From: Candidatus Abyssobacteria bacterium SURF_17
Lineage (GTDB): Bacteria > Abyssobacteria > SURF-5
Assembly: GCA_003598055.1 (NCBI GenBank)
Contig: QZKI01000022.1
Location: forward strand, 15,566-79,565
Reading direction: 5' to 3'
Length of the DNA: 64,000 nucleotides
Made by a program: the position numbers and the translations under genes. The notes below the pieces were generated by a model that was given only the letters and a program-made list of their open reading frames with translations, was not told the DNA's origin and ran no database searches. This document shows positions 6,563 through 61,307 of the stretch, piece after piece (the stretch's first letter is position 1; every line of letters starts with the position of its first letter).

Positions 6563-8692
6563 ATGAAGCCACAGGTAAACTTGATGCTGGGAATTCATTC
6601 CCACCAGCCCGTCGGCAATTTCGACGGGGTGTTCAAACAGGCTTACGAGACATGCTACCGTCCTTTTCTGGAGACTCTTGCCCGCCACCCCGGTGTCCGC
6701 GTGGCGCTCCATTACTCCGGTCCCCTGCTCGAGTGGTTCGAGGGAAACGAGCCGGATTACATCGACATGATCGCAGACCTTGCCGAGCATGGGCAGGTGG
6801 AAATGCTCAGCGGCGGTTTCTATGAACCCATCCTTCCCATCATCCCGCGCGAGGATGCACTCGGCCAGATTGAGATGATGAACGCGTACATACGCAAGCG
6901 CTTCGGGCAAAAGGCGCGCGGCCTGTGGCTGACGGAGCGCGTGTGGGAGCCGCACCTGCCGTCGCTCATCGCGGATGCAGGCCTCAGTTACACGATCATA
7001 GACGAAACGCATTTCGTCTATGCCGGACTCGACGCGCAAGACATGTTCGGGTATTACTTGACTGAGGACAACGGCAAAGATGTGGCTGTATTCCCCATTG
7101 ACAAGCACCTGCGATACTACATTCCGTTCAAACTGCCGGAGGATACGCTTGAGTACTTGCGCACGGTCTCCGCGGGAACCGGCCCCAAAGACATAACCTA
7201 TGGAGACGACGGCGAGAAGTTCGGCGTGTGGCCGGAGACATACAAGTGGGTGTACACCGAGGGTTACCTCGAGAAATTTTTCGCGATGCTCGAGGCCAAT
7301 GCCGATTGGGTGACGATGCCCACGTTCTCGGAATTTGTCGAGTCGCACCCGCCGGTGGGCCGCATCTACTTGCCGACAGCCGCGTACGACGAGATGACGG
7401 AATGGGCGCTGCCCGCGCGCGCGTCAATCCGGTATCAGGACATACTTGACAAGCTGAAGGCTGACGGCGCGTATCAAAATTACCGACCGTTCCTGCGCGG
7501 CGGATTCTGGCGCAACTTTCTGGCAAAATATCCTGAATCCAACCGAATGCACAAGAAGATGCTGCTTGTCAGTCGCAAGGTGCACTCCCTGCGAGACAAA
7601 CGAGCGGCTGAGGCCAAGCGCCACTTATGGCAGGGGCAGTGCAATTGTCCCTACTGGCACGGCCTGTTCGGGGGCCTGTATCTGAATTACCTCAGGTTCG
7701 CAAATTACACACATCTGATCCAGGCCGAACAGTTGGCGGATGGGGCGGACAAGAAGTCTACGCCCGCACTCCGCGTCGAGAACGTCGATTACGATTGCGA
7801 CGGGCACGAAGAGACCATTGTCACCACACCCGTATACGGTGTTTGCTTCAGTCCCGGTTACGGCGGCTCGGTCGCCGAAATCGACTACATGCCGAAATGT
7901 TTCAATATAACGGATGTCATGAGCCGAAGGCCCGAGGCATATCACCGTAAGATAACCGAGGCTTCGACCGGTCATGGGTCAGCCGAGGTGAAATCGATCC
8001 ACGATATCGTTCGCGTGAAGGAAAAAGACCTCGAAAAAAAGCTGTCGTATGACTGGTACGAACGACGCTGTTTCCTCGACCATTTCATCCGGGCCGGAAC
8101 GACCCTGGACGAGTTCGCGCGCTCGCAGTATCTTGAGGAGGGCGATTTCGTCAATCAGCCTTACAATGTCGCGACAAAGAAGAAGTCGCGCGACACATTC
8201 GCGCTTACACTGAAGCGTGACGGTCACCTGTGGACGCCGCAGCGCGCAATACCGATTTCAATCGAGAAAACGTTCACAATCTCGAGCAAGGAAGGAATCG
8301 AAGCACGATATACCATTCAGAGCAGCGTTGAACCCGTCCCGCCGACGATGTTTGCCGTCGAGCTCAATCTCACACTGTTGGCGGGAGACAGCGAGGACCG
8401 CTTCTATGATATTCCCGGCTGTTCCCTGGAGCACAATCGAATGAACAGTATGGGTGAGCTTGAGCCCGTTTCGCTCGTCCGCCTCATTGACCGTTGGATG
8501 AACATCGCGATTGTCGTCGAGTACGAACCTTCGGCCATTTTCTGGAGATTCCCGATAGAAACCGTATCCCAGTCTGAAGGAGGCTTTGAGAGGACGTACC
8601 AGGGTTCAAGCCTCACGGCGCTGTGGTCGCTTTCACTTGATGCGCATGATGTGGTAGGATGCTCAGTCAAGCTAAGGGTGGAGCAGCTCTAG
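6563..8692 (+). CDS. glycoside hydrolase family 57 protein (4-alpha-glucanotransferase / amylopullulanase-like, long C-terminal extension)
   Basis: MLGIHSHQPVGNFDGVF...ALHYSGPLLEWFE is typical GH57 N-terminal catalytic region. 709 aa. Second GH57 in tandem with the previous one. Confidence 0.8.
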   Translation: MKPQVNLMLGIHSHQPVGNFDGVFKQAYETCYRPFLETLARHPGVRVALHYSGPLLEWFEGNEPDYIDMIADLAEHGQVEMLSGGFYEPILPIIPREDALGQIEMMNAYIRKRFGQKARGLWLTERVWEPHLPSLIADAGLSYTIIDETHFVYAGLDAQDMFGYYLTEDNGKDVAVFPIDKHLRYYIPFKLPEDTLEYLRTVSAGTGPKDITYGDDGEKFGVWPETYKWVYTEGYLEKFFAMLEANADWVTMPTFSEFVESHPPVGRIYLPTAAYDEMTEWALPARASIRYQDILDKLKADGAYQNYRPFLRGGFWRNFLAKYPESNRMHKKMLLVSRKVHSLRDKRAAEAKRHLWQGQCNCPYWHGLFGGLYLNYLRFANYTHLIQAEQLADGADKKSTPALRVENVDYDCDGHEETIVTTPVYGVCFSPGYGGSVAEIDYMPKCFNITDVMSRRPEAYHRKITEASTGHGSAEVKSIHDIVRVKEKDLEKKLSYDWYERRCFLDHFIRAGTTLDEFARSQYLEEGDFVNQPYNVATKKKSRDTFALTLKRDGHLWTPQRAIPISIEKTFTISSKEGIEARYTIQSSVEPVPPTMFAVELNLTLLAGDSEDRFYDIPGCSLEHNRMNSMGELEPVSLVRLIDRWMNIAIVVEYEPSAIFWRFPIETVSQSEGGFERTYQGSSLTALWSLSLDAHDVVGCSVKLRVEQL

Positions 8693-8754
8693 CGCGTAAT
8701 TCCGGAAATTCGCGGCATAGGTAAAATAGCCCTGAGGATGGTTGTTGTAGGGCC

Positions 8755-8812
8755 GAATTCATTCGGCTGGAGACCTGGAAGGCCTCATGCGAATAAATTC
8801 GCACCTACAGAC
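8755..8812. repeat. bipartite palindromic repeat element (GGGCCGAATTCATTCGGCTGGA ... ATGCGAATAAATTCGCACCTACAGAC)
   Basis: Two short palindromes (GCCGAAT/ATTCGGC and TGCGAAT/ATTCGCA) plus a CCTACAGAC tail. The same two modules recur at 44515-44586 and the second module twice at 51116-51187. Confidence 0.5.
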
Positions 8813-8873: not shown

Positions 8874-9827
8874 ATGCCTGCAGAAAGTCCCCGTTATGAG
8901 ATAGCCGTTGTCGGGCCGGGCGCGATCGGATGCCTCTTCGGCGGCCTGCTCAAAGAGGCGGGCCATCGGGTCATCATGCTCGACCATCGGCCCGAACGAG
9001 CTGAATCGATCAACCGCAAAGGCATCCACATCGAAGGCATTTCGGGCACGCGCGACATCGCCATGAAAGCAACCGCGAACCCATCCGATGTGGCAGGGTG
9101 TGATTTCGCCCTCATTGCGACCAAGTCCTACGATACCGGGGTGGCGGTCAACACCATTTCCGGAGTCCTTCGCCCGTCCACGCCGGTGATGACGCTGCAG
9201 AACGGCCTCGGAAACGTCGAATTGATAAGCAGAGCCGTCGGTGATGAAAGGACAATCGGAGGAATCACGTCTCAGGGCGCCACATTGCTCGGTGACGGCT
9301 CTGTCAGACATGCGGGCGCCGGGAAAACCGTCATTGGCACTCCGTCGAACCGACTCACCGAGAATCTCCGCCGGGTTAAGGGCATGCTCGATTCCTCGGG
9401 CTTCGCCCCGCAGATTTCCGACGACCTCGAAAGCACTATCTGGAGCAAGCTCCTCATCAACGTCGGCATAAACGCGCTCACGGCCATAACGAGACTGAAT
9501 AATGGAAGGCTTCTCGAATTCGGGGGAACTCGAAGCATCATGCAGGATGCGGTCAGAGAAGCAGTCGCTGTGGCGGATGCCCGCGGCATAGCGTTGGCTC
9601 ACGGTGACCCACTTGCACAGGTCGAGGAGGTGTGCCGCCTGACCGCCGCGAACGTCTCTTCGATGCTCCAGGATGTGCTCGCACGGAGAAGGACGGAGAT
9701 AGACGCCATCAACGGCGCCGTTGCGCGAATCGGATTGGAGTTGGGAATTCCAACGCCCGTGAATTCAGTTCTCGCCTCGCTCGTGCACACCATAGAATCC
9801 AGCTACCACCTTCAGGTAAGCCGCTGA
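8874..9827 (+). CDS. 2-dehydropantoate 2-reductase family (ApbA/PanE) oxidoreductase
   Basis: N-terminal Rossmann IAVVGPGAIGCLFGGLL, conserved LIATKSYDT lysine, and ketopantoate-reductase-like C-terminal domain. 317 aa. Confidence 0.6.
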   Translation: MPAESPRYEIAVVGPGAIGCLFGGLLKEAGHRVIMLDHRPERAESINRKGIHIEGISGTRDIAMKATANPSDVAGCDFALIATKSYDTGVAVNTISGVLRPSTPVMTLQNGLGNVELISRAVGDERTIGGITSQGATLLGDGSVRHAGAGKTVIGTPSNRLTENLRRVKGMLDSSGFAPQISDDLESTIWSKLLINVGINALTAITRLNNGRLLEFGGTRSIMQDAVREAVAVADARGIALAHGDPLAQVEEVCRLTAANVSSMLQDVLARRRTEIDAINGAVARIGLELGIPTPVNSVLASLVHTIESSYHLQVSR

Positions 9828-10014: not shown

Positions 10015-10173
10015 GTCATTGCGAGTCATGCCACGCCTGAGGCGGGGCATGACGAAGCAATCTCTGAGTGTGTATCCTCAACGTTGCCTATGAGATTGCT
10101 TCGGTCGCGTCGCTCCCTCGCAATGACGGCGCGGATGTTTCTTCCACGCATAACCCCGCCACAGGCGGGGTCG
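10015..10173. repeat. modular nested-inverted-repeat element, copy A (GTCATTGCGAG-hairpin-GAAGCAATCTC ... GAGATTGCTTCG-...-CTCGCAATGAC-tail)
   Basis: GTCATTGCGAG / CTCGCAATGAC and GAAGCAATCTC / GAGATTGCTTC are reverse-complement pairs. The inner hairpin TCATGCCACGCCTGAGGCGGGGCATGAC and the ~45-nt tail GGCGCGGATGTTTCTTCCACGCATAACCCCGCCACAGGCGGGGTCG are shared with other copies (20901-21047, 37730-37854 and others). Confidence 0.6.
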
Positions 10174-10283
10174 AAGGCTCAGAATGACATAAGTGGTTGC
10201 TCCTTTTTGGGCGACGTGCCGAAAAGAGCTGACCCCATTTGAGAAGTTGCCACCTTTTGCCCGGAGAGTTTCGCGGGAAGCGG

Positions 10284-20900: not shown

Positions 20901-21047
20901 TTTTGCGAGAAGCGTAGCGATGAAGCAAACTCCATTTCTTCGGAGATTGCTTCGCTCGGGCCTACGGCCCTTCGCTCGCAATGACGGCTCGGATGTTCCT
21001 TTCACACATAACCCCGCCGCAGATGGGGTCGGATGCTCGCAATGACG
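20901..21047. repeat. modular nested-inverted-repeat element, copy B
   Basis: Contains GAGATTGCTTCG...TTCGCTCGCAATGAC and the tail GGCTCGGATGTTCCTTTCACACATAACCCCGCCGCAGATGGGGTCG, nearly identical to copy A. Lies in the putA-upstream intergenic region. Confidence 0.55.
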
Positions 21048-29750: not shown

Positions 29751-29859
29751 GGGGGCGCAGGGCTGTGCGCCCCTACAACAAGAATTGCGGCTGCTTCGCA
29801 AAGAGTTGACCGCATCTCGTGTGGAGGGGCGACCCGACGTCGGGTCGCCCCTACAATTG
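29751..29859. repeat. two REP-like GC hairpins with CCCCTACAA tail (GGGGCGCAGGGCTGTGCGCCCCTACAACA; GGGGCGACCCGACGTCGGGTCGCCCCTACAATTG)
   Basis: Members of the GTAG-headed hairpin family repeated through the window. They sit in the kinase-PilZ spacer. Confidence 0.5.
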
Positions 29860-32102: not shown

Positions 32103-33233
32103 TCAGATTTTTTCCAGAGGCCGCTTCTGGCCGGCCATTTCGTTCTCCGATGCTACCTTCAATCGTAATTCCCTCGGGGATGCAAAAATCGGTTCGCGCT
32201 CGAGCCGTTCGAGCCTGAGGGCCTCGGTCGGGCACGTGACCGTGCACGCTCCACAGCCCATGCAGCGGGTTTCATCAATTTGGGCTTTGTCGGCGCCGTC
32301 GGGCAGGGAGATTGCCTTGAAGAAACAGCGGTCAACGCATGTGGCGCACGCGGCGCAATCGTCGCTCACCCGCGCGACGAAGTTGGAGCGAGCAAATGCC
32401 CTTGGATTGTCCCATCTCGTCAGGCCGCGCGTGATGGAGCAGCAGCAGCCGCAGCAGAAGCAGATGACGCCATCTTTCATCTCGACGGCGTTATCGGTCA
32501 TGACGACGAGCCCGAGGTCTCGCATTTCTTCGGCAAATTTTTTTGCTTCTTCCCGCGTCACCTGTTTGCCATCGCCGCGGCCGACCATGAGCATTGCAGG
32601 CATGCCCACGAACAGGCACGATCCCACGGGATACTTATCCTTGCACTCGCGGATTCCGAGCTTGTCGGTCCGGTTGCGGCACGGGCACGGTGCCAGCGCG
32701 AGCGCTCCCAAGTTGGCCTGGTCCAAGAACACATCGAGTTCCTCATGAGAAAGCACCTGCTGGCCCCCTGAAATTGACTGGTCCACGGGCACGGCCCGGC
32801 GCTGTGGAGTACCTTTCGCCGACGATTCATAATAGCGGTAGAAGCCGTCCTTAATGTAGTACTGCTGGTACAAACGGCCAGCTTTCATGGCATCTTCGTC
32901 ATCGGCATTTCGAAATGGGTGATAATTGACCAGAAGCGGGATTACCGGAAGCATGTATTGTCCGCCGAATCCGATAATTACGCCTCTTTCCGTCAGTCGC
33001 CCGAGAACTTCTTCGACTTCACTGACAGGTTTCCCGGCCCTCTCAGCGACCTCTTCCGCCGTCAAACGGTTCGGGTCGACCGAAAGGAACGAAGCCACCT
33101 CTGCTTCTTCGGGTTTCAAAAGAATCTGAAGATACTCGAGAAAAGCCGGAGAGAAATCTCCGTCTACCTTCGGCACGCCCGTGATGTTCATGTCAAGCTT
33201 TTCGGCGAGCGTTTTGTATGGAGACGTCGTCAT
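32103..33233 (-). CDS. Fe-S protein: N-terminal winged-helix-like domain + Cys-cluster (CPC..C..CFCCGCCC) + two CxxCxxCxxxCP ferredoxin motifs (paralog 1, divergent)
   Basis: 376 aa. Ferredoxin motifs CAACATCVDRC and CMGCGACTVTCP. Shares domain order and about one third identity with the next two genes. Confidence 0.6.
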   Translation of the reverse strand: MTTSPYKTLAEKLDMNITGVPKVDGDFSPAFLEYLQILLKPEEAEVASFLSVDPNRLTAEEVAERAGKPVSEVEEVLGRLTERGVIIGFGGQYMLPVIPLLVNYHPFRNADDEDAMKAGRLYQQYYIKDGFYRYYESSAKGTPQRRAVPVDQSISGGQQVLSHEELDVFLDQANLGALALAPCPCRNRTDKLGIRECKDKYPVGSCLFVGMPAMLMVGRGDGKQVTREEAKKFAEEMRDLGLVVMTDNAVEMKDGVICFCCGCCCSITRGLTRWDNPRAFARSNFVARVSDDCAACATCVDRCFFKAISLPDGADKAQIDETRCMGCGACTVTCPTEALRLERLEREPIFASPRELRLKVASENEMAGQKRPLEKI

Positions 33234-33309
33234 TACCTTCTCCTCCTGATACCATCAGTTTGCTTTGCGAGTTAGCCCATAGCCGTTTCGAGGGGCAACG
33301 CAATGGAGC

Positions 33310-34413
33310 CTAAATCAGCCCTTCGAGAGTGCGGCCCGTCTTCTGTGCCTTTTCCATTGTCCAGGTGATCATGTTTTCCGGCGGGACGTCGATGTGCTCT
33401 TCATCCTTGCGTACAAGTGAGAGCGCTCCGCTGGGACACGTGACCACGCACACGCCGCACCCGATGCAGCGGTCTTGGTTTACTTCATAGTATTCGCTCC
33501 GCGATTCGATGGCCCCAACAGGGCATCGCTCATCGGCGCAGACGCCGCATGCGACGCATGTTTCCGGGTCGATGTTTGCCAGGTAATTGGATTTCGCAAG
33601 CATATGAGGCGATTTCGCCATCTTCACGCCGCGCAGGATCGCGCAGCAGCACGTGCAACAGTTGCAGATGAACACGTGGTCGTCCTGCACATTCCACGAA
33701 TTGTGCACGAGGCCTTCTTCCTCCGCCTTCTTGAGCAGTTCGAGCACTTCTTGCTTCGTTGCTTTTCGCGCGCCGCGGTACTCGATGTCGAACCCGTGCG
33801 GGTCGGGCGAGAAGGCGATGCAGTTGTTCATCGTCCTGTTGCAGCCTTTGCCGATGATCTTCATTTCCTTGCGGCAGATGCAGTCGGAAACAGCCCATGA
33901 TTGGGCTTTCTCGACCATGTTTGAGACTTTCTCGAACGGGAGCACGGTGAGCTCGTTCGGAATCGCCTGCTCTACGGGATACACCCGTATTTGTGCCGGC
34001 GCTTCCTTTCCCACGTGCTCGATGAACGCCTCTTCAAGGTATTGCTCGAACAGCTCGACGTATTCCTTGTCGAGCCGCGCGAGCTGAAACTCGTGAATCC
34101 CGAGAATGAACGGGAACGCGCTGTACATGCGGCTTTCCGCCGGCCCCATTCCCATGAGCTGGCCCTTTGAGGTCATCCTTTCGAGGATTTCGGCCATTTT
34201 CTTCGGGTCGCGGCCCAACCGCTCGGTTACCTGCTCGGCTGTCTCCGGCACCAATTTCATTTGTGATGCGACTTCGGCCTCCTCCTCCGTGAAAATCTTC
34301 TTGAGGATTCTTATCTCGACACCGCTCTCGGTCTTCGGATACCCGTGCGGCATCGCTTCGAGATGTTCGGCTAATTTCTGATAACTCCCTTTGCTCATGA
34401 ATCGTCCCTCCAA
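33310..34413 (-). CDS. Fe-S protein, winged-helix + Cys-cluster (CNCCTCCC) + 2x[4Fe-4S] ferredoxin motifs (paralog 2)
   Basis: 367 aa. Motifs CVACGVCADERCP and CIGCGVCVVTCP. Very high identity to paralog 3, roughly 80% or more by eye. Confidence 0.6.
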   Translation of the reverse strand: MEGRFMSKGSYQKLAEHLEAMPHGYPKTESGVEIRILKKIFTEEEAEVASQMKLVPETAEQVTERLGRDPKKMAEILERMTSKGQLMGMGPAESRMYSAFPFILGIHEFQLARLDKEYVELFEQYLEEAFIEHVGKEAPAQIRVYPVEQAIPNELTVLPFEKVSNMVEKAQSWAVSDCICRKEMKIIGKGCNRTMNNCIAFSPDPHGFDIEYRGARKATKQEVLELLKKAEEEGLVHNSWNVQDDHVFICNCCTCCCAILRGVKMAKSPHMLAKSNYLANIDPETCVACGVCADERCPVGAIESRSEYYEVNQDRCIGCGVCVVTCPSGALSLVRKDEEHIDVPPENMITWTMEKAQKTGRTLEGLI

Positions 34414-34455
34414 GCAACAAAACTCTCGTTCCGTTACAATAAGAATTTTCGGTCG

Positions 34456-35571
34456 TTATATCAGGCCTTCCATGGTGCGGCCGGTTTTCTGCGCTTTTTC
34501 CATTGTCCAGGCGACAATGTTATCGGGCGGAATGTCGATTTCGGCCTCGTCTTTCCTGACGAGCGAGAGCGCGCCGCTCGGGCACGTGACCACGCACACG
34601 CCGCAGCCGATGCAGCGCTCGCGATTTACTTCATAATGCTCGTTGCGCGCGTCGATTGCCTGCATCGGACATCTCTCGTCGGCGCACACGCCGCAGGCAG
34701 CACAGGTGTCCGCATCAATCTGTGCGTAGTAATTCGACCTAGCCGCGAAATTAGGCGCCTTCTTTATTCCGCGAAGCACGAGGCAGCAGCATGTGCAGCA
34801 GTTGCAGACAAACACATGGCTGTCCTGCACGTTCCACGAAGTGTGCACGAGACCTTCCTCCTCCGCCTTCTTGAGCAGTTCGAGCACTTCTTCCTTCGAG
34901 GCCTTCCGCGCGCCGCGATAATCGATGTCGAACCCATGCGGGTCCGCTGAAAATGCGATGCAGTTATTCATCGTAGCGCCGCATCCCTCGCCCAATATCT
35001 GCTTCTCCTTGCGACAAATGCAATCAGCTACGGCCCAGGCCTGAGCCTTCTCGACCATGCTTGAAACTTTTTCGAAGGGGAGCACGGTGAGTTCGGCTGT
35101 TATTGCCTGCTCCACGGGATAAATACGGACCTGGGACGGCGCTTCCTTCCCCACTGCGTCGGCATAAGCCTCCTCGAAATACTGCTCGAACAACTCTGCA
35201 TATTCCCTGTCAACTCGCGGCAATTGAAACTCGTGGACGCCGGCAATAAAGGGGAATGCACTGTACATGCGACCATCCTTAGGGCCCATCCCCATAAGCT
35301 GCCCTTTGGACGTCATCCTTTCCAGTAACTCGGCCATCTCCTTCGGCTCACGGCCGAGACGCTCGGCCACCTGGTCTGCATTCTCCGGCATCAGCTTCAT
35401 CTGCGACGCGACTTCGGCTTCCTCTTTCGTGAAAATCTTCTTCAAGATTCTTATCTCAATCCCGCTCTTGGTCTTCGGAAACCCCTGCGGCATCGCGTTG
35501 AGATGTTCGGCTAGGTTCCTGTACGTGTCTTTACTCATAGCTGTCTCCCTCCAAAGGACACCAATGGCCAC
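34456..35571 (-). CDS. Fe-S protein, winged-helix + Cys-cluster + 2x[4Fe-4S] ferredoxin motifs (paralog 3)
   Basis: 371 aa. Near-identical architecture and sequence to paralog 2, suggesting a recent tandem duplication. Confidence 0.6.
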   Translation of the reverse strand: MAIGVLWRETAMSKDTYRNLAEHLNAMPQGFPKTKSGIEIRILKKIFTKEEAEVASQMKLMPENADQVAERLGREPKEMAELLERMTSKGQLMGMGPKDGRMYSAFPFIAGVHEFQLPRVDREYAELFEQYFEEAYADAVGKEAPSQVRIYPVEQAITAELTVLPFEKVSSMVEKAQAWAVADCICRKEKQILGEGCGATMNNCIAFSADPHGFDIDYRGARKASKEEVLELLKKAEEEGLVHTSWNVQDSHVFVCNCCTCCCLVLRGIKKAPNFAARSNYYAQIDADTCAACGVCADERCPMQAIDARNEHYEVNRERCIGCGVCVVTCPSGALSLVRKDEAEIDIPPDNIVAWTMEKAQKTGRTMEGLI

Positions 35572-36481: not shown

Positions 36482-36526
36482 GGGCGAACCTTGTGTTCGC
36501 CCATGGGCGCAATGAATTACGCCCCC
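36482..36526. repeat. pair of REP-like hairpins (GGGCGAACCTTGTGTTCGCCC; GGGCGCAATGAATTACGCCCC)
   Basis: GC stems with an AATGAATT loop, related to the TGCGAATAAATTCGCA and GGGCGCA...TGCGCCCC families. Confidence 0.4.
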
Positions 36527-36773
36527 CTGAGTCTGTCCCACAATTGCGCTTCATCCCCTTTCTCGCCTGACATTCTTTGCGCCCTTTGCGTCTTTGCGGT
36601 TAGAAAACTCCTTGGGCAAGAGCAGGTTCGCCCCCGCAACTGACCTCCTCATAATGTTTGATGCATTTTCCAGTCTCATCTATGAGCAATTTCGACGACT
36701 TAACATTGCATTCCGAAAAGGTTGCTGACAAACTTAGAGAAATTACATTCAGTCACGAATACTGTTCGGCGCT

Positions 36774-39944: not shown

Positions 39945-39975
39945 CAGGGCGCAGCATGTTGCGCCCCTACAACCT
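39945..39975. repeat. REP-like hairpin GGGCGCAGCATGTTGCGCCCCTACAACC
   Basis: Same family as 29751-29859, 51015-51040 and 61037-61067. Confidence 0.5.
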
Positions 39976-43449: not shown

Positions 43450-43547
43450 TTTAAACCAACACGGTGTGTTTTACAAGCCTGACTGACGCGCGGCGGGAAA
43501 AGAGGGAGGTATGGGATAGCCATGGCTCGCTTTGCTTGAGATTGCTT

Positions 43548-43576
43548 CGGTCACCGCGCTTCCCTCGCACCGACGA
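43548..43576. repeat. degenerate fragment of the GAGATTGCTTCG...CTCGCAATGAC module (copy D)
   Basis: GAGATTGCTTCGGTCACCGCGCTTCCCTCGCACCGACG. Confidence 0.35.
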
Positions 43577-44402: not shown

Positions 44403-44514
44403 GAGTAGCATATGTTGGCACCCCCATCGTTCGAACAAAAAATGTTTCTTTGAAACCGTGCCTGTGCACTTGCGCAAGTTAGGGACAGAGAATCAGTATC
44501 GTGGTCCTGTAGGG

Positions 44515-44586
44515 TCGAATTCATTCGACTGGATATGAGCGCAAAGTTGCTGAAAACATTATGCGAATAAATTCGCACCTACGAGA
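44515..44586. repeat. bipartite palindromic repeat element (GGGTCGAATTCATTCGACTGGA ... ATGCGAATAAATTCGCACCTACGAGAC)
   Basis: Second full copy of the 8755-8812 element; both modules are present. Confidence 0.5.
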
Positions 44587-44638
44587 CCGAAGCCAGGGTA
44601 GCAATTGCGAGACAGATTTTCTGTCCTTTCTTCCTCTG

Positions 44639-45610
44639 TCACCGCACTATGGTCACATCGCCGTGCGACACAGGCCGCAGGCTGCCATCCTTTTCCTCGA
44701 CGATGAGGGAACCGTCATCGTCCAGGTCGCGCGCGATTCCTTCCACGTATCCCTCACGCATTTGCACCCGCACATGTCTGCCCAGCGTGCACGAGAGGTC
44801 ACGCCATTGTTTCAGAACGTTCCCGCTGCCGTGCTGCTTGAAATGCACGTACTGGGTGTCAAACTCGCGCAAGACGCGCCGGAATACTTCCGGTCGGTCG
44901 AATTGCTCCCCTTTTTCGATTCTCATCGAGGTTGCTATCGCCGCCACCTCCGCCGGAAACATCGAGGGCGTCTGATTCACGTTGAGTCCAAAGCTCGCGA
45001 TAACATGTCGCACCGCATCTTGCTCGGCGACGAGTTCAGTTAGCGCTCCGCAAATCTTGCGGCCGTTTACCGTAACATCGTTCGGCCATTTTATTCGCGC
45101 ATCAAAAGTGTACTGTTCGCTGAGCACCTTTGCAACAGCCACGGCGGTAAGCAGTGTGAGTTTTGGTACATCCCTCGGCGGCATGGCCGGGCGCAAGACG
45201 ATGGAAGCCCAGACGCCGCAGCCGGAGGGGGAACTCCATTTCCTGCCGAGCCGACCACGCCCTCCGGTCTGAGATTCGGCGACGATTACGGTGCCCTCGG
45301 CGCACCCTTCGCTCGCGAGCGAGCCTGCAACGTCGATCGTCGAGGGAACAGAATCGAATGAAACGACCGACTGTCCGATGATGCGCGTGTCGAGGTCAGC
45401 CTCGATGTCAAGTCCGACGATGCGCTCGGGCGCAGCCTCGAATCGGTAGCCTCGGTTGGCGCATGAGCCGATGCGAAAACCCATCTTCCGCAGAGATGCA
45501 ACCGATTTCCATACCGCGGATCGCGACACCCCAAACGTATGGCTCATGGCCTGACCCGACACATATGCGCCCTCTGCATGACGGAGCAGCTTCAGAATTT
45601 CCTTTTCCAT
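44639..45610 (-). CDS. birA: bifunctional biotin-[acetyl-CoA-carboxylase] ligase / biotin operon repressor
   Basis: N-terminal HTH (MEKEILKLLRHAEG...), biotin-protein-ligase catalytic core (GRGRLGRKW = GRGRxGR motif), C-terminal SH3-like domain. Confidence 0.85.
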   Translation of the reverse strand: MEKEILKLLRHAEGAYVSGQAMSHTFGVSRSAVWKSVASLRKMGFRIGSCANRGYRFEAAPERIVGLDIEADLDTRIIGQSVVSFDSVPSTIDVAGSLASEGCAEGTVIVAESQTGGRGRLGRKWSSPSGCGVWASIVLRPAMPPRDVPKLTLLTAVAVAKVLSEQYTFDARIKWPNDVTVNGRKICGALTELVAEQDAVRHVIASFGLNVNQTPSMFPAEVAAIATSMRIEKGEQFDRPEVFRRVLREFDTQYVHFKQHGSGNVLKQWRDLSCTLGRHVRVQMREGYVEGIARDLDDDGSLIVEEKDGSLRPVSHGDVTIVR

Positions 45611-45673
45611 GGGGATTCGTTCGTGAAGAGTGTTATCCAGCGTGCCCGTCGCATATGCCATGTGGATATGTGG

Positions 45674-49870: not shown

Positions 49871-51040
<1,170 letters not shown>

Positions 51041-51115
51041 TTCTTGGCCTACCTCTCGGCCCGCGTCTTTCGTCTTTCCCAATTCCCCTTCAGCGATTGT
51101 TTCCTGCTTGTGTAG

Positions 51116-51187
51116 GTGCGAATTTATTCGCATGCGGATGACGAAAACAAGCCGGAAAAACCATGCGAATGAATTCGCACCTACAGA
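51116..51187. repeat. inverted pair of the TGCGAAT-AA-ATTCGCA / CCTAC element (BIME-like)
   Basis: GTAGGTGCGAATTTATTCGCAT at 51116-51137 is the reverse complement of the ATGCGAATGAATTCGCACCTACAGAC unit at 51161-51186. Confidence 0.5.
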
Positions 51188-51243
51188 CAAACATACCAGA
51201 TTGCGAATTAGGGGACAGATTCCGCTTCCCCTTTTCCCCCTTT

Positions 51244-52278
51244 TTACAGGATGAGCATGGCATCGCCGTAACTGTAGAACCGGAATTGTTCTTTGACCGC
51301 CGTTTCGTATGCCCGCATGATGAGGTCGCGGCCTGCAAAGGCGCACACGAGCAGGAGCAGCGAGCTGCGCGGCAGGTGAAAATTCGTTATGAGCGCGTCG
51401 GCGGAGCGGAACGTATGGCCCGGATAAATGAAGATGTCGGCAATCCCTTCGCCCGCCTCATATTCGCCTTTTTCCGTGACCACCGTCTCGAGGAGCCGGA
51501 GCGTGGTTGTGCCGACTGCTATCACTCGTCCTTCGCGTCGCCGCACCTCGTTCAGACGACGAGCGGTTTTTGCAGTCATCCGGTAGCGCTCCGGGAAAAT
51601 CGTGTTCTTCTCAACCTCCTCGTGCTCGAGCGGCTGAAAAGTTCCCAGGCCTATATGTAAGGTGACGAACTCGACCGAGACACCCTTGTCGGAAAGCTCC
51701 TTCAGGAGTTCCGAGGTGAAATGGAGCCCCGCGGTCGGCGCGGCGGAGGCCCCTTCCCTTCGCGCAAACACCGTCTGGTATCTATGAATGTCGTCTGATT
51801 CGGCCTCGCGCCTGATGTACGGAGGAAGCGGAATCTCACCTACCCGCCAGCAGAGGCGCCTGACGTCACCTACGGAAAATTTGAGCGTCTTTATCGCGCC
51901 CCGGTCCTCTACGACTTCCACGGTATCGGCCTGTCGCGCGCCTTCTATCGAAAGAAGTGTTCCCGCCTTCAGGCGGCGGCCCGGGCGCGCCATCGCTTCC
52001 CACGTGCCCTTCTCAATCTCGTTCAACAGAAGCAGCTCAACGTGAGCTCCCGTTTCCACTTTTCGCGCACGGAGACGTGCAGGAAACACTTTGGTGTCAT
52101 TCAGGACCAGAGCATCCCCGCTTCCGAAATGACCGATGATTTCCGGGAATGTTCCGATGCGGATACTGTTGGATGCGCGGTCGACGACCATCAGGCGTGA
52201 ATGCCCTCTGCGCGGAGCAGGATGCTGGGCTATAAGCTCCGGCGGCAAGTCATAGTCGAAATCTGAAAGTTTCAGCAT
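51244..52278 (-). CDS. queA: S-adenosylmethionine:tRNA ribosyltransferase-isomerase
   Basis: MLKLSDFDYDLPPELIAQHP N-terminus is highly characteristic of QueA. About 345 aa. Confidence 0.9.
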   Translation of the reverse strand: MLKLSDFDYDLPPELIAQHPAPRRGHSRLMVVDRASNSIRIGTFPEIIGHFGSGDALVLNDTKVFPARLRARKVETGAHVELLLLNEIEKGTWEAMARPGRRLKAGTLLSIEGARQADTVEVVEDRGAIKTLKFSVGDVRRLCWRVGEIPLPPYIRREAESDDIHRYQTVFARREGASAAPTAGLHFTSELLKELSDKGVSVEFVTLHIGLGTFQPLEHEEVEKNTIFPERYRMTAKTARRLNEVRRREGRVIAVGTTTLRLLETVVTEKGEYEAGEGIADIFIYPGHTFRSADALITNFHLPRSSLLLLVCAFAGRDLIMRAYETAVKEQFRFYSYGDAMLIL

Positions 52279-52383
52279 CGGATGGTTCACCGGTCTGTAC
52301 TACTATCGTTCAATTTCATGATCTTCGTCGCGATTTTCCGGCGACATGCTGTATAGTAACCATGCAAACGAACTTGCACATGC

Positions 52384-52431
52384 AAGGGCGCAATAAATTA
52401 CGCCCCTCTGCGCCTGCCGTAGGGGCGCGAT
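52384..52431. repeat. REP-like GC hairpins with AATAAATT loop (GGGCGCAATAAATTACGCCCC ... GTAGGGGCGCGATTCATCGCGCCC)
   Basis: Links the GC-stem and AT-loop families: GTAG head, GGGCGC stems, AATAAATT loop. Confidence 0.4.
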
Positions 52432-53019
52432 TCATCGCGCCCGATCTGTTTGGTTGCGGCCGTGCCGCTCTATGCGAGCTTGAGACGAACCGGGCGAGTG
52501 GAATCGCTCCTTCTCGCTGTAAATGCAGCCGCAGTATTTCTGCCGGTACAGCCCCATTTCGCGCGACAGTTGGCGGGTCTGCGGCCAACCCGGCCGAAAA
52601 TCCTCGTAATAGAATTCGATTCCGTACTGCAATCCGGCGCTCTGGCCGACTTCGCGAATGAGGTCGTGCTTCTGATACGGGCTTACAAGGAGGGATGTGC
52701 TGAATGCATCGAACCCCTGGGCCGACGCTTCGCGAGCCGCTCGTGACAAGCGCAGGTGGTAGCATGCTACGCAGCGATTGCTTTCACGGTATGCGACAAG
52801 TCTGAAATACTCCTCCACATCGTACTCATTGCAAATCGTTGCCGGTATGGCCTCGATTTCGAGCAATTTCCTCGCCGAATCCAGCCGGAGGTTATGCTCG
52901 GCCAGCGGATGGATGTTGGGATTATAAAAGAATCCGTGCACATTGTGGCCTCGTTCCCGCAAAGTCTTCACGGGATAGGTGGCGCACGGTCCGCAGCAGA
53001 TGTGGAGAAGAAGCTTCAT
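52432..53019 (-). CDS. queH: epoxyqueuosine reductase QueH (DUF208)
   Basis: N-terminal MKLLLHICCGPCATYP (CCGPC signature of DUF208/QueH). 195 aa. Adjacent to queA and tgt. Confidence 0.8.
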   Translation of the reverse strand: MKLLLHICCGPCATYPVKTLRERGHNVHGFFYNPNIHPLAEHNLRLDSARKLLEIEAIPATICNEYDVEEYFRLVAYRESNRCVACYHLRLSRAAREASAQGFDAFSTSLLVSPYQKHDLIREVGQSAGLQYGIEFYYEDFRPGWPQTRQLSREMGLYRQKYCGCIYSEKERFHSPGSSQARIERHGRNQTDRAR

Positions 53020-59254: not shown

Positions 59255-59329
59255 GGTTCACGCTCCTTCGCCCCTCTGCGAATGAGTTCGCAGTTACACA
59301 ATTACGAGAGAGAGTCCCTGTCCTGCAAA

Positions 59330-61036: not shown

Positions 61037-61067
61037 TTTGTAGGGGCGCACGGCCGTGCGCCCCTGC
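61037..61067. repeat. REP-like hairpin in inverted orientation TTGTAGGGGCGCACGGCCGTGCGCCCCTGCC
   Basis: GTAG head plus GGGCGCA/TGCGCCC stem. Confidence 0.45.
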
Positions 61068-61109: not shown

Positions 61110-61214
61110 GTCATTGCGAGCGAAGGGCCGCTTGCCCGAGCGAAGCAATCTCTGCACGCATTCTCAACTGCCTCCAACGAGATTGCTTCGGTCGCTTTGC
61201 TCCCTCGCAATGAC
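61110..61214. repeat. modular nested-inverted-repeat element, copy E
   Basis: GTCATTGCGAG-CGAAGGGCCGCTTGCCCGAGCG-GAAGCAATCTC ... GAGATTGCTTCGGTCGCTTTGCTCCCTCGCAATGAC. Confidence 0.6.
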
Positions 61215-61307
61215 TGCACCGGAGGAACGTCACTAGTACAGTCCTCTTTGCCCGGAGACGGGGATAGAGCCCTACCATGGCTCTGTCCCCATCTGTTCAA
61301 TTCCATG

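Follow-up and report, generated by a model that had tools for sequence, protein, structure and literature searches.

GTAG-tagged REP doublets between genes of Candidatus Abyssubacteria bacterium SURF_17 and RAYT transposases flanked by the same REP in other genomes

Background

Repetitive extragenic palindromes (REPs) with a short stem-loop and an unpaired GTAG end constitute a superfamily for which Di Nocera, De Gregorio and Rocco (2013; PMC3733652) gave the definitions and the genomic location, including those of the head-to-head (HH) dimers. Here we analyze three intergenic elements of this kind, at positions 8747-8808, 44509-44582 and 51112-51184 of a 64,000-nt stretch of Candidatus Abyssubacteria bacterium SURF_17 (contig QZKI01000022.1, positions 15,566 to 79,565; hereafter the window), each of them a pair of hairpins with the stem halves CGAAT and ATTCG. 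As in the superfamily, GTAG-outside dimers are preferred, homodimers and heterodimers both occur, the spacers fall in the range of 20-100 bp, the repeats lie between unidirectional open reading frames (ORFs), downstream of coding regions, and genes of REP-associated tyrosine transposases (RAYTs) are repeat-flanked. The differences are that CGAAT-tc/tt-ATTCG was not matched to any of the 24 numbered families, the strings 'CGAAT' and 'ATTCG' being absent from the text of that paper, which gives its consensus sequences in a figure, and that Candidatus Abyssubacteria and Hydrogenedentes are not among the phyla listed there (PMC3733652).

In the Pseudomonas REPIN-RAYT system, two inverted REPs together with their spacer form the replicating unit, according to Bertels and Rainey (2011; PMC3116915), and this arrangement is repeated in the window. 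A further likeness is that RAYTs of about 150 amino acids are flanked by their own REPs, whereas the stem sequence is different and the window genome's own RAYT was not located. The literature on the Pseudomonas system stresses vertical inheritance, while the identical 21-mer considered here spans several phyla. RAYTs approximately 50-55% identical to those found in this study are flanked by GTAGGAGCGAGCTTGCTCGC or GTAGGAGCGGGCTTGCCCGC units, which we take to be the Pseudomonas REP type tied to RAYT Group 3 (PMC5581495).

The E. coli REPs and bacterial interspersed mosaic elements (BIMEs), with the transposase TnpA-REP (RayT/YafM; Messing 2012; Ton-Hoang 2012), serve as the biochemical model of single-stranded DNA (ssDNA) binding and cleavage, both of which need GTAG plus a hairpin (PMC3479197). 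The 5' GTAG beside the hairpin and the HUH and Tyr motifs of the transposase recur in the system described here. However, the REPs of E. coli are longer, their palindromes being imperfect and having a recognised bulge, as opposed to perfect stems of 7-8 bp, and they form Y/Z1/Z2 BIMEs with IHF or gyrase sites, to which the heterodimers of the window are an analogy only. In the IS200/IS605 elements, a Y1 HUH transposase recognises a subterminal hairpin and a guide on ssDNA. The likeness extends to the hairpin with a 4-nt guide and to the lack of a target-site duplication, but those hairpins occupy the ends of an autonomous, tnpA-bearing insertion sequence, and the ones considered here are dispersed and non-autonomous.

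SURF_17, of an uncultured lineage of the deep subsurface, is a 91%-complete metagenome-assembled genome (MAG) of 4.6 Mb and 54.8% G+C from a depth of 1.5 km, and the words 'repeat', 'transposase' and 'palindrom' are absent from its description (PMC6121073). The window element has every sequence-level feature by which GTAG REPs and HH dimers (PMC3733652) and REPINs (PMC3337134, PMC3116915) are defined. The finding is essentially explained by ordinary REPINs: it is highly probable that each locus is a REPIN, that is, an inverted head-out doublet of 21-22 nt GTAG-tagged REPs. REPs of the CGAAT class are, in all likelihood, the cognate substrates of a clade of RAYTs of approximately 150 amino acids, which are HUH/Y1 single-strand DNA transposases.

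Architecture of the three doublets

Scanning both strands of the window for hairpins adjoining GTAG located six units of 21 nt, all with a GTAGG head, a perfect 7-bp stem and a 2-nt loop. They are arranged at all three loci by a common head-out design, GTAGG-NNCGAATnnATTCGNN, spacer, NNCGAATnnATTCGNN-CCTAC, with 20, 32 and 31 nt between the inverted units of REPINs 1, 2 and 3, respectively, and element lengths of 62-74 nt. The parts of the elements, and one relative, are as follows.

REPIN 1, 8747-8808: GTAGG-GCCGAAT-tc-ATTCGGC, 20 nt, TGCGAAT-aa-ATTCGCA-CCTAC
8747-8767 (+), REP unit, left arm, GCC stem variant; hairpin of 6-7 bp with GTAGG unpaired
8768-8787, spacer of 20 nt with its own small hairpin GAGACCTGGAAGGCCTC (sequence and fold)
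8788-8808 (-), REP unit, right arm, GTAGG-TGCGAAT-tt-ATTCGCA; the identical 21-mer is present at no fewer than 115 loci of other genomes and flanks RAYTs
REPIN 2, 44509-44582: GTAGG-GTCGAAT-tc-ATTCGAC, 32 nt, TGCGAAT-aa-ATTCGCA-CCTAC
44509-44529 (+), REP unit, left arm, GTAGG-GTCGAAT-tc-ATTCGAC, GTC variant (hairpin scan)
44530-44561, spacer of 32 nt with the right end GAAAACATTATG, an end common to REPINs of a second Abyssubacteria genome
44562-44582 (-), REP unit, right arm, GTAGGTGCGAATTTATTCGCA (hairpin scan); TGTTTT follows the hairpin on the sense strand
REPIN 3, 51112-51184: GTAGG-TGCGAAT-tt-ATTCGCA, 31 nt, TGCGAAT-ga-ATTCGCA-CCTAC
51112-51132 (+), REP unit, left arm, GTAGGTGCGAATTTATTCGCA (hairpin scan)
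51133-51163, spacer of 31 nt ending in GGAAAAACCATG; repeat family D5, 77% identical to the right half of locus 2
51164-51184 (-), REP unit, right arm, GTAGGTGCGAATTCATTCGCA; forms a near-homodimer with the left arm
59277-59292, degenerate relative TGCGAATGAGTTCGCA with one stem mismatch and no GTAG/CTAC, intergenic (mismatch search); probably a decayed REP remnant

The three stem variants (GC..GC, GT..AC and TG..CA) differ in a compensatory manner at the two outer stem positions, and the heterodimers combine different stem types, GCC with TGC in REPIN 1 and GTC with TGC in REPIN 2. Folded as ssDNA, single units reach -5.3 to -5.9 kcal/mol (z about -4.4) with the GTAGG head unpaired. In the heterodimeric REPINs 1 and 2, GTAGG pairs with CCTAC and so encloses two small hairpins, and the near-homodimeric REPIN 3 forms a single long hairpin (-26.8 kcal/mol, z = -9.2).

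The initial annotation of this stretch, made from the letters alone, had reported the repeated strings at three loci, and their non-random occurrence was confirmed: exact copies of TGCGAATNNATTCGCA are found at 8788, 44562, 51117 and 51164, with up to two mismatches there are six matches in the window against 0.48 expected (none of 100 shuffles reached six), and CGAATTCATTCG with up to one mismatch has seven matches against 1.02 expected. Its delineation of the elements needed correction. The GTAGG heads (8747-8751 and 44509-44513) had been overlooked, and the first two elements start at 8747 and 44509, not at 8755 and 44515; the supposed contrast between 'bipartite' modules at two loci and an inverted pair at the third disappears in the single head-out design, and the spacer at locus 3 is 31 nt long instead of 25 bp. 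The tail CCTACAGAC is present at loci 1 and 3, but locus 2 reads CCTACGAGAC. The stems are perfect inverted repeats, but the 2-nt loops (TC or TT on the GTAGG strand) are not self-complementary. One further match, TGGGAATTCATTCCCA at 6588, is attributed to chance and not counted in the family: it falls within the coding sequence of GH57, is untagged and has two mismatches.

The same REP in other genomes

The GTDB species-representative genomes were scanned with the 21-mer GTAGGTGCGAATNNATTCGCA (19 specified bases), which yielded at least 115 loci, compared with about four chance matches estimated for the whole collection. The hosts among the matches listed are mainly Beta- and Gammaproteobacteria (Gallionella, Sideroxydans, Sulfuricella, Thiopseudomonas, Methylobacter, Methylomonas, Thiocapsa and Halothiobacillus), and a few assemblies of Desulfobacterota, Firmicutes and Chloroflexota are listed too, Desulfobacteraceae and Pelotomaculum among them. 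At least nine loci with this 21-mer belong to another Abyssubacteria MAG, CAYVDS01 (GCA_964450145.1). The G+C content at the inspected loci ranges from 36 to 66%. A literature search with the REP sequence as a string returned unrelated chance matches only.

A census of the pattern GTAGG-NN-CGAAT-NN-ATTCG-NN over the matched loci and the window gave 214 units. True head-out pairs (57) predominate over tail-out (7) and tandem (13) ones, 58 units are singletons, and the modal spacer is 16 nt. A polar loop, reading T[C/T] along the GTAGG strand, characterizes 201 of the 214 units, and the two free outer stem positions match each other perfectly in 26 of the 35 units of types other than TG/CA, where about two would be expected by chance.

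Association with RAYT genes

In the direction from the motif to the protein, a rough RAYT consensus was used as a probe of 3,571 ORFs, and the matches were verified with curated models. The probe picked two ORFs, in loci L007 and L041, which score 155.8 and 142.8 bits, respectively, on NF047646 ('REP-associated tyrosine transposase'; cutoff 80), both pass PF01797, match the IS200 model weakly (29-30 bits; cutoff 55), and carry the HUH motif as PDH[LI]HW and the catalytic Tyr motif as ARY..ANP. The L041 RAYT is flanked by a REPIN and, at its opposite end, by four units in tandem and a fifth that is inverted; the L007 RAYT lies between GTAGGTGCGAATTTATTCGCACCTAG and GGGTCGAATAAATTCGACCCTAC, the latter being the GTC variant known from window locus 2. 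RAYTs flanked by the identical REP 21-mer are only about 55% identical to each other. A blind all-against-all clustering of the ORFs from 115 motif-selected loci brought no RAYT cluster to the surface.

In the opposite direction, 80 metagenome loci were retrieved by RAYT similarity alone, independently of the motif. GTAG-tagged perfect hairpins are situated within 200 nt of the RAYT gene in 67 of these loci, and on both sides of it in 51; units of the CGAAT type, including all three stem variants of the window, adjoin the RAYT in 30. Among the flanking CGAAT units, GGTCGAAT was counted 27 times, GTGCGAAT 23, GGCCGAAT 19 and GGGCGAAT 18; the three window variants are among these four commonest types, with GGTCGAAT the commonest of all. 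The GGCCGAAT variant, which forms the left arm of REPIN 1, adjoins RAYTs in L123, L125, L135, L136, L144, L161 and L166, and pairs of variants co-occur around one RAYT, as they do in the heterodimers of the window. Identity to the query RAYT is slightly higher at the CGAAT-type loci (Mann-Whitney p = 0.0009). TGCGAAT REPINs also bracket two more RAYTs that the protein search yielded, P0126 and P0142 (L201 and L203), and in L201 the RAYT stop codon falls inside the GTAG head. The REP reading of the initial annotation was thus borne out, the units being GTAG-tagged hairpins in head-out dimers, extragenic, and identical in sequence to units that flank RAYTs elsewhere.

As a separate observation, two RAYTs flanked by TGCGAAT REPINs (regions L201 4301-9232 and L203/L204 6001-11589) lie within clusters of N6_N4 methyltransferase and ResIII helicase/nuclease genes that resemble type III restriction-modification systems, the L201 RAYT being located directly between the two genes.

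Selection on the hairpin

For each RAYT locus, the most frequent 22-mer starting with GTAG was chosen by repetition alone, which avoids circularity, giving 35 distinct sequences; GTAG is invariant among them by construction, and independent support for it comes from the above-mentioned hairpins near 67 of the 80 RAYTs. Pairs were counted for the structure ....((((((((..)))))))). All eight stem pairs have compensatory changes on both sides, 80% of the cells are paired, whereas shuffling gives 53% and sliding of the 3' partners gives 30-45%, and the covariation score of 0.624 (0.200 in shuffles) was reached in none of 500 shuffles. It is the structure that is conserved rather than the stem sequence. 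Since complementarity is kept while the sequence varies, the pattern fits recognition of a folded single strand.

Several points weigh against the REPIN-RAYT interpretation. Neither the window nor approximately 190 kb of Abyssubacteria DNA yielded a RAYT gene, and none of the best 120 of more than 7,500 RAYT homologs is attributed to Abyssubacteria; two candidates picked by an NCBI+JGI source profile belong to other organisms. The window holds three doublets only, with six units in 64 kb, and its stems are of 7 bp, with the inner end followed by T, whereas most RAYT-flanking copies have 8 bp (G...C). The transposition chemistry assumed for this RAYT clade is carried over from the E. coli enzyme. 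Exact-protein look-ups with six proteins encoded in the window, among them PanE, QueH, Tgt (P0001) and the products of its first and last genes, did not extend the contig, and BirA alone was matched, on a 1.8-kb JGI contig ending at the birA stop codon. Present mobility in SURF_17 is unproven, and the REP population could be orphaned.

A 329-aa Y1_Tnp protein of another Abyssubacteria genome (L118 8944-9933, BAAHGW010000007.1) was considered as the cognate RAYT and rejected, because it scores 67.5 bits on the RAYT model (cutoff 80) and has no GTAG hairpins around it. Its gene is situated directly upstream of tgt, at the position held by queA in other genomes.

Genomic context and alternative explanations

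All three doublets, as well as the remnant at 59277-59292, are intergenic, and the doublets lie between co-directional housekeeping genes (Pfam assignments):

Locus 1, GH57 amylase/glucanotransferase 6563-8692 (+), then PanE 8874-9827 (+)
Locus 2, BirA 44639-45661 (-), then CoaX with the start at ~44411 (-)
Locus 3, QueA 51244-52290 (-), then Tgt with the start at 51004 (-)

The distances from the stop codons of GH57, birA and queA are 54, 56 and 59 nt, respectively. This uniform placement downstream of stops of co-directional genes would be expected if the hairpins were locally evolved RNA elements, such as terminators, attenuators or stabilisers of mRNA 3' ends, rather than mobile DNA. Read in the sense direction, loci 2 and 3 have TGTTTT or GGTTTTT directly after their first unit, which was flagged as weakly terminator-like, and E. 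coli REPs are known to influence mRNA decay and termination. Nevertheless, a purely RNA-level origin is very improbable. The stems are weak (7 bp, three G-C pairs, about -5 kcal/mol), and the terminator-like matches are weak (seven pairs, three G-C) and confined to two of the six units, the right arms of REPINs 2 and 3, locus 1 having none and lacking a T-run. The heterodimers of loci 1 and 2 face opposite ways with respect to transcription, the entire window gave no Rfam match at gathering thresholds, and a local origin cannot explain the identical 21-mer at 115 or more loci of other taxa and its association with RAYTs. Secondary co-option of a REPIN for an RNA role is possible, and would be compatible with the REPIN reading.

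The elements could also be regarded as miniature inverted-repeat transposable elements (MITEs), i.e., units of 62-74 nt with 21-bp terminal inverted repeats read as duplex by a DDE transposase; they are short, intergenic, present in multiple copies and bounded by the inverted repeats GTAGG...CCTAC. This is hardly credible, as no target-site duplication is visible at the flanks of any of the three window doublets, and singletons make up more than a quarter of the census (58/214), with tandem and tail-out arrangements existing alongside, unlike obligatory pairs of terminal repeats. Moreover, each arm is itself a hairpin with compensatory changes, the only recurrently flanked gene encodes the HUH/Y1 RAYT, and the blind ORF clustering of the 115 loci revealed no recurrent DDE transposase beside the motif.

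Comparison with related genomes bears on the origin of the spacers. In the sister genome SURF_5 (L120) the queH-queA-tgt-yajC-secDF-nadC-birA-coaX synteny is kept, but the queA-tgt and birA-coaX gaps are of 17 and 2 nt, too small for an element, and 21 kb of L120 contain no unit of the CGAAT type. In CAYVDS01 (L117), whose Tgt is 87% identical to that of the window, the same gaps are of 357 and 260 nt, with other repeats inside. Being missing from the orthologous spacers of SURF_5, the window elements are insertions, in contradiction to conserved operators, and the pattern of presence and absence across SURF_5 and CAYVDS01 is such as mobile insertions produce. The queA gene call of CAYVDS01 (L117 1353-2525) is truncated, 271 aa versus approximately 345, and is followed by the 357-nt repeat-filled gap and then by tgt.

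The conserved protein-binding palindrome that the initial annotation had offered as the other choice, that is, a 16-bp TGCGAAT-NN-ATTCGCA duplex operator of a dimeric transcription factor regulating panE, coaX and tgt, has perfect inverted-repeat arms around 2-bp centres and a position upstream of three genes of cofactor and tRNA-modification metabolism in its favor, yet it is close to untenable and already largely refuted: besides the missing copies in SURF_5, no sigma-70-like promoter adjoins any of the three elements; the units at loci 2 and 3 are 97-107 nt upstream of the downstream gene starts, but the distance from the upstream stop is always 54-59 nt; the same 21-mer stands beside unrelated genes in dozens of unrelated taxa and brackets RAYTs; the polar GTAGG tag and the polar T[C/T] loop break the dyad symmetry; and stem complementarity is kept as the sequence changes (GC/GC, GT/AC, TG/CA and others), which is a signature of a hairpin and not of base-specific recognition of a duplex.

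Proposed mechanism

The REPIN-RAYT reading, in addition to the observed anatomy, structural selection, RAYT association, extragenic insertion and absent target duplication, leads to the following scheme, modeled on E. coli TnpA-REP and the IS200/IS605 elements. On transiently single-stranded DNA each unit would fold into a hairpin, and the RAYT would bind the hairpin together with the unpaired 5' GTAG on ssDNA; the predicted substrate is the ssDNA GTAGGTGCGAATTTATTCGCAC, and, by analogy with the E. coli enzyme (PMC3479197), GTAG should be essential to both binding and cleavage. The catalytic tyrosine would then form a 5'-phosphotyrosyl intermediate in the course of ssDNA cleavage and strand transfer, and the doublet would be excised or copied and placed at a new site without target-site duplication. 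Three such insertions would have landed 54-59 nt past the GH57, birA and queA stops in the SURF_17 contig, where the host presumably tolerates the inserted doublets and co-transcribes them. Effects on the host, for instance partial termination or protection of mRNA 3' ends, would be secondary and are unproven.

Lineage-specific features and neighboring repeats

Loci 2 and 3 of the window and four CAYVDS01 copies are alike in measuring 72-74 nt overall and in having (G)AAAACATTATG as the spacer end by the right unit, the rest of the spacer being divergent among these copies; locus 1 has a different, 20-nt spacer. Among the 204 loci examined, the spacer end GAAAACATTATG occurs only in the window and in CAYVDS01 L065, L100, L103 and L105. 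The common length and spacer end may reflect a master copy of the doublet that propagated within the Abyssubacteria lineage.

A companion motif, AATT[AG]CG[AG]GACAG, is located 2-22 nt outside many copies, and among the same 204 loci it was seen only in Abyssubacteria DNA. It is found near a REP or REPIN in L065, L100, L103, L105, L048 and L117, in L100 and L105 on both sides and inverted, and the best four matches in the window all lie beside REP-like hairpins:

44603-44615 (+), companion motif AATTGCGAGACAG, separating REPIN 2 from the birA stop codon, 21 nt outside the REPIN
51206-51218 (+), companion motif AATTAGGGGACAG, separating REPIN 3 from the queA stop codon, 22 nt outside the REPIN
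36533-36545 (-), companion motif (motif match)
59300-59312 (+), companion motif (motif match)

It may represent an outer palindrome, an insertion target or a companion repeat.

The window also contains a second, GC-rich family of GTAG REPs, GTAGGGGCGC...GCGCCCC, often with a CCTACAA tail and mostly singletons (GTAG-hairpin scan):

29752-29776 (-), GC-rich GTAG REP, in tandem with the next
29826-29854 (-), GC-rich GTAG REP
39947-39970 (-), GC-rich GTAG REP
51015-51038 (-), GC-rich GTAG REP, ending 10 nt upstream of the tgt ATG, at the expected ribosome-binding site
52419-52442 (+), GC-rich GTAG REP
61040-61064 (+), GC-rich GTAG REP

If folded in the mRNA, the copy by tgt could occlude translation initiation. 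The initial annotation had placed the AT-rich and the GC-rich palindromes in one REP superfamily. In partial support of this, the stems flanking RAYTs of the clade form a graded series (GTGCGAAT, GGTCGAAT, GGCCGAAT, GGGCGAAT, GGCCGACT, GTCGGCCT and GAGCGAGC), but none of the RAYTs in the loci examined had the GTAGGGGCGC type at its flanks. Judged by sequence, a continuum between the CGAAT units and the GC-rich GTAG REPs is plausible, because of this series, the shared TC loop and the intermediate GGGCGAAT. The form GGGCGCAATAAATTACGCCCC, put forward earlier as an intermediate, is present at 52386-52406 and has a second copy at 36505-36525; both are hairpins of the type GGGCGCAAT[GA]AATTACGCCCC within the 54-nt repeat D9 (74% identical), with one stem mismatch and no GTAG tag, and the 36505 copy is followed by the companion motif.

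Two other repeats of the region are recorded here. An intergenic MITE-like family unrelated to the REPs, with GAGATTGCTTCGGTCGC...GCTCCCTCGCAATGAC and GTCATTCTGAGCGTAGCGAAGAATC-type inverted repeats, is common to SURF_17 and CAYVDS01 (window 10087-10188, 20972-21046, 43537-43563 and 61174-61217; L105 2091-2182; L117 2340-2430 and 9230-9260). At 32103-35571 (-) the window has three tandem paralogs of approximately 370 aa with a period of about 1,140-1,200 nt (families D1-D3, 74-80% identical).

Phyletic distribution and implications

The window's Tgt matches the SURF_17 protein with 100% identity, and the Tgt proteins of other Abyssubacteria are 82-87% identical to that of the window. A Tgt labelled Poribacteria (P0008) is 84% identical to it, and locus L097 (JACRIR010000209.1), from a 'Candidatus Poribacteria' assembly, carries the REP motif; these sequences probably belong to an Abyssubacteria relative under another label. 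The 16S gene of SURF_17 itself was reported as Poribacteria-related (PMC6121073).

It is mildly interesting that the GTAGGTGCGAAT REP is present in both Abyssubacteria and Proteobacteria, as this sits uneasily with predominantly vertical inheritance. One tentative scenario, which we consider rather doubtful, is that a REPIN-RAYT system of the Beta-/Gammaproteobacteria type with the identical 21-nt REP crossed phyla into Abyssubacteria and diversified there into a subfamily with spacers of 30-32 nt ending in AAACATTATG, habitually by AATT[AG]CG[AG]GACAG, possibly persisting without a RAYT. If true, it would be a counter-example to the almost purely vertical inheritance of REPIN-RAYT systems, and REPINs would here be nested in a second repeat or would target it.

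The analysis adds a REP/REPIN family to a candidate lineage described without repeats or transposases (PMC6121073). The three enlarged spacers, GH57-panE, birA-coaX and queA-tgt, are explained by insertion of mobile elements and not by regulatory sites, and thus there is no reason to seek a regulator there. The shared 21-mer is a small but usable data point on the conservation of RAYT-REP specificity and on horizontal movement.

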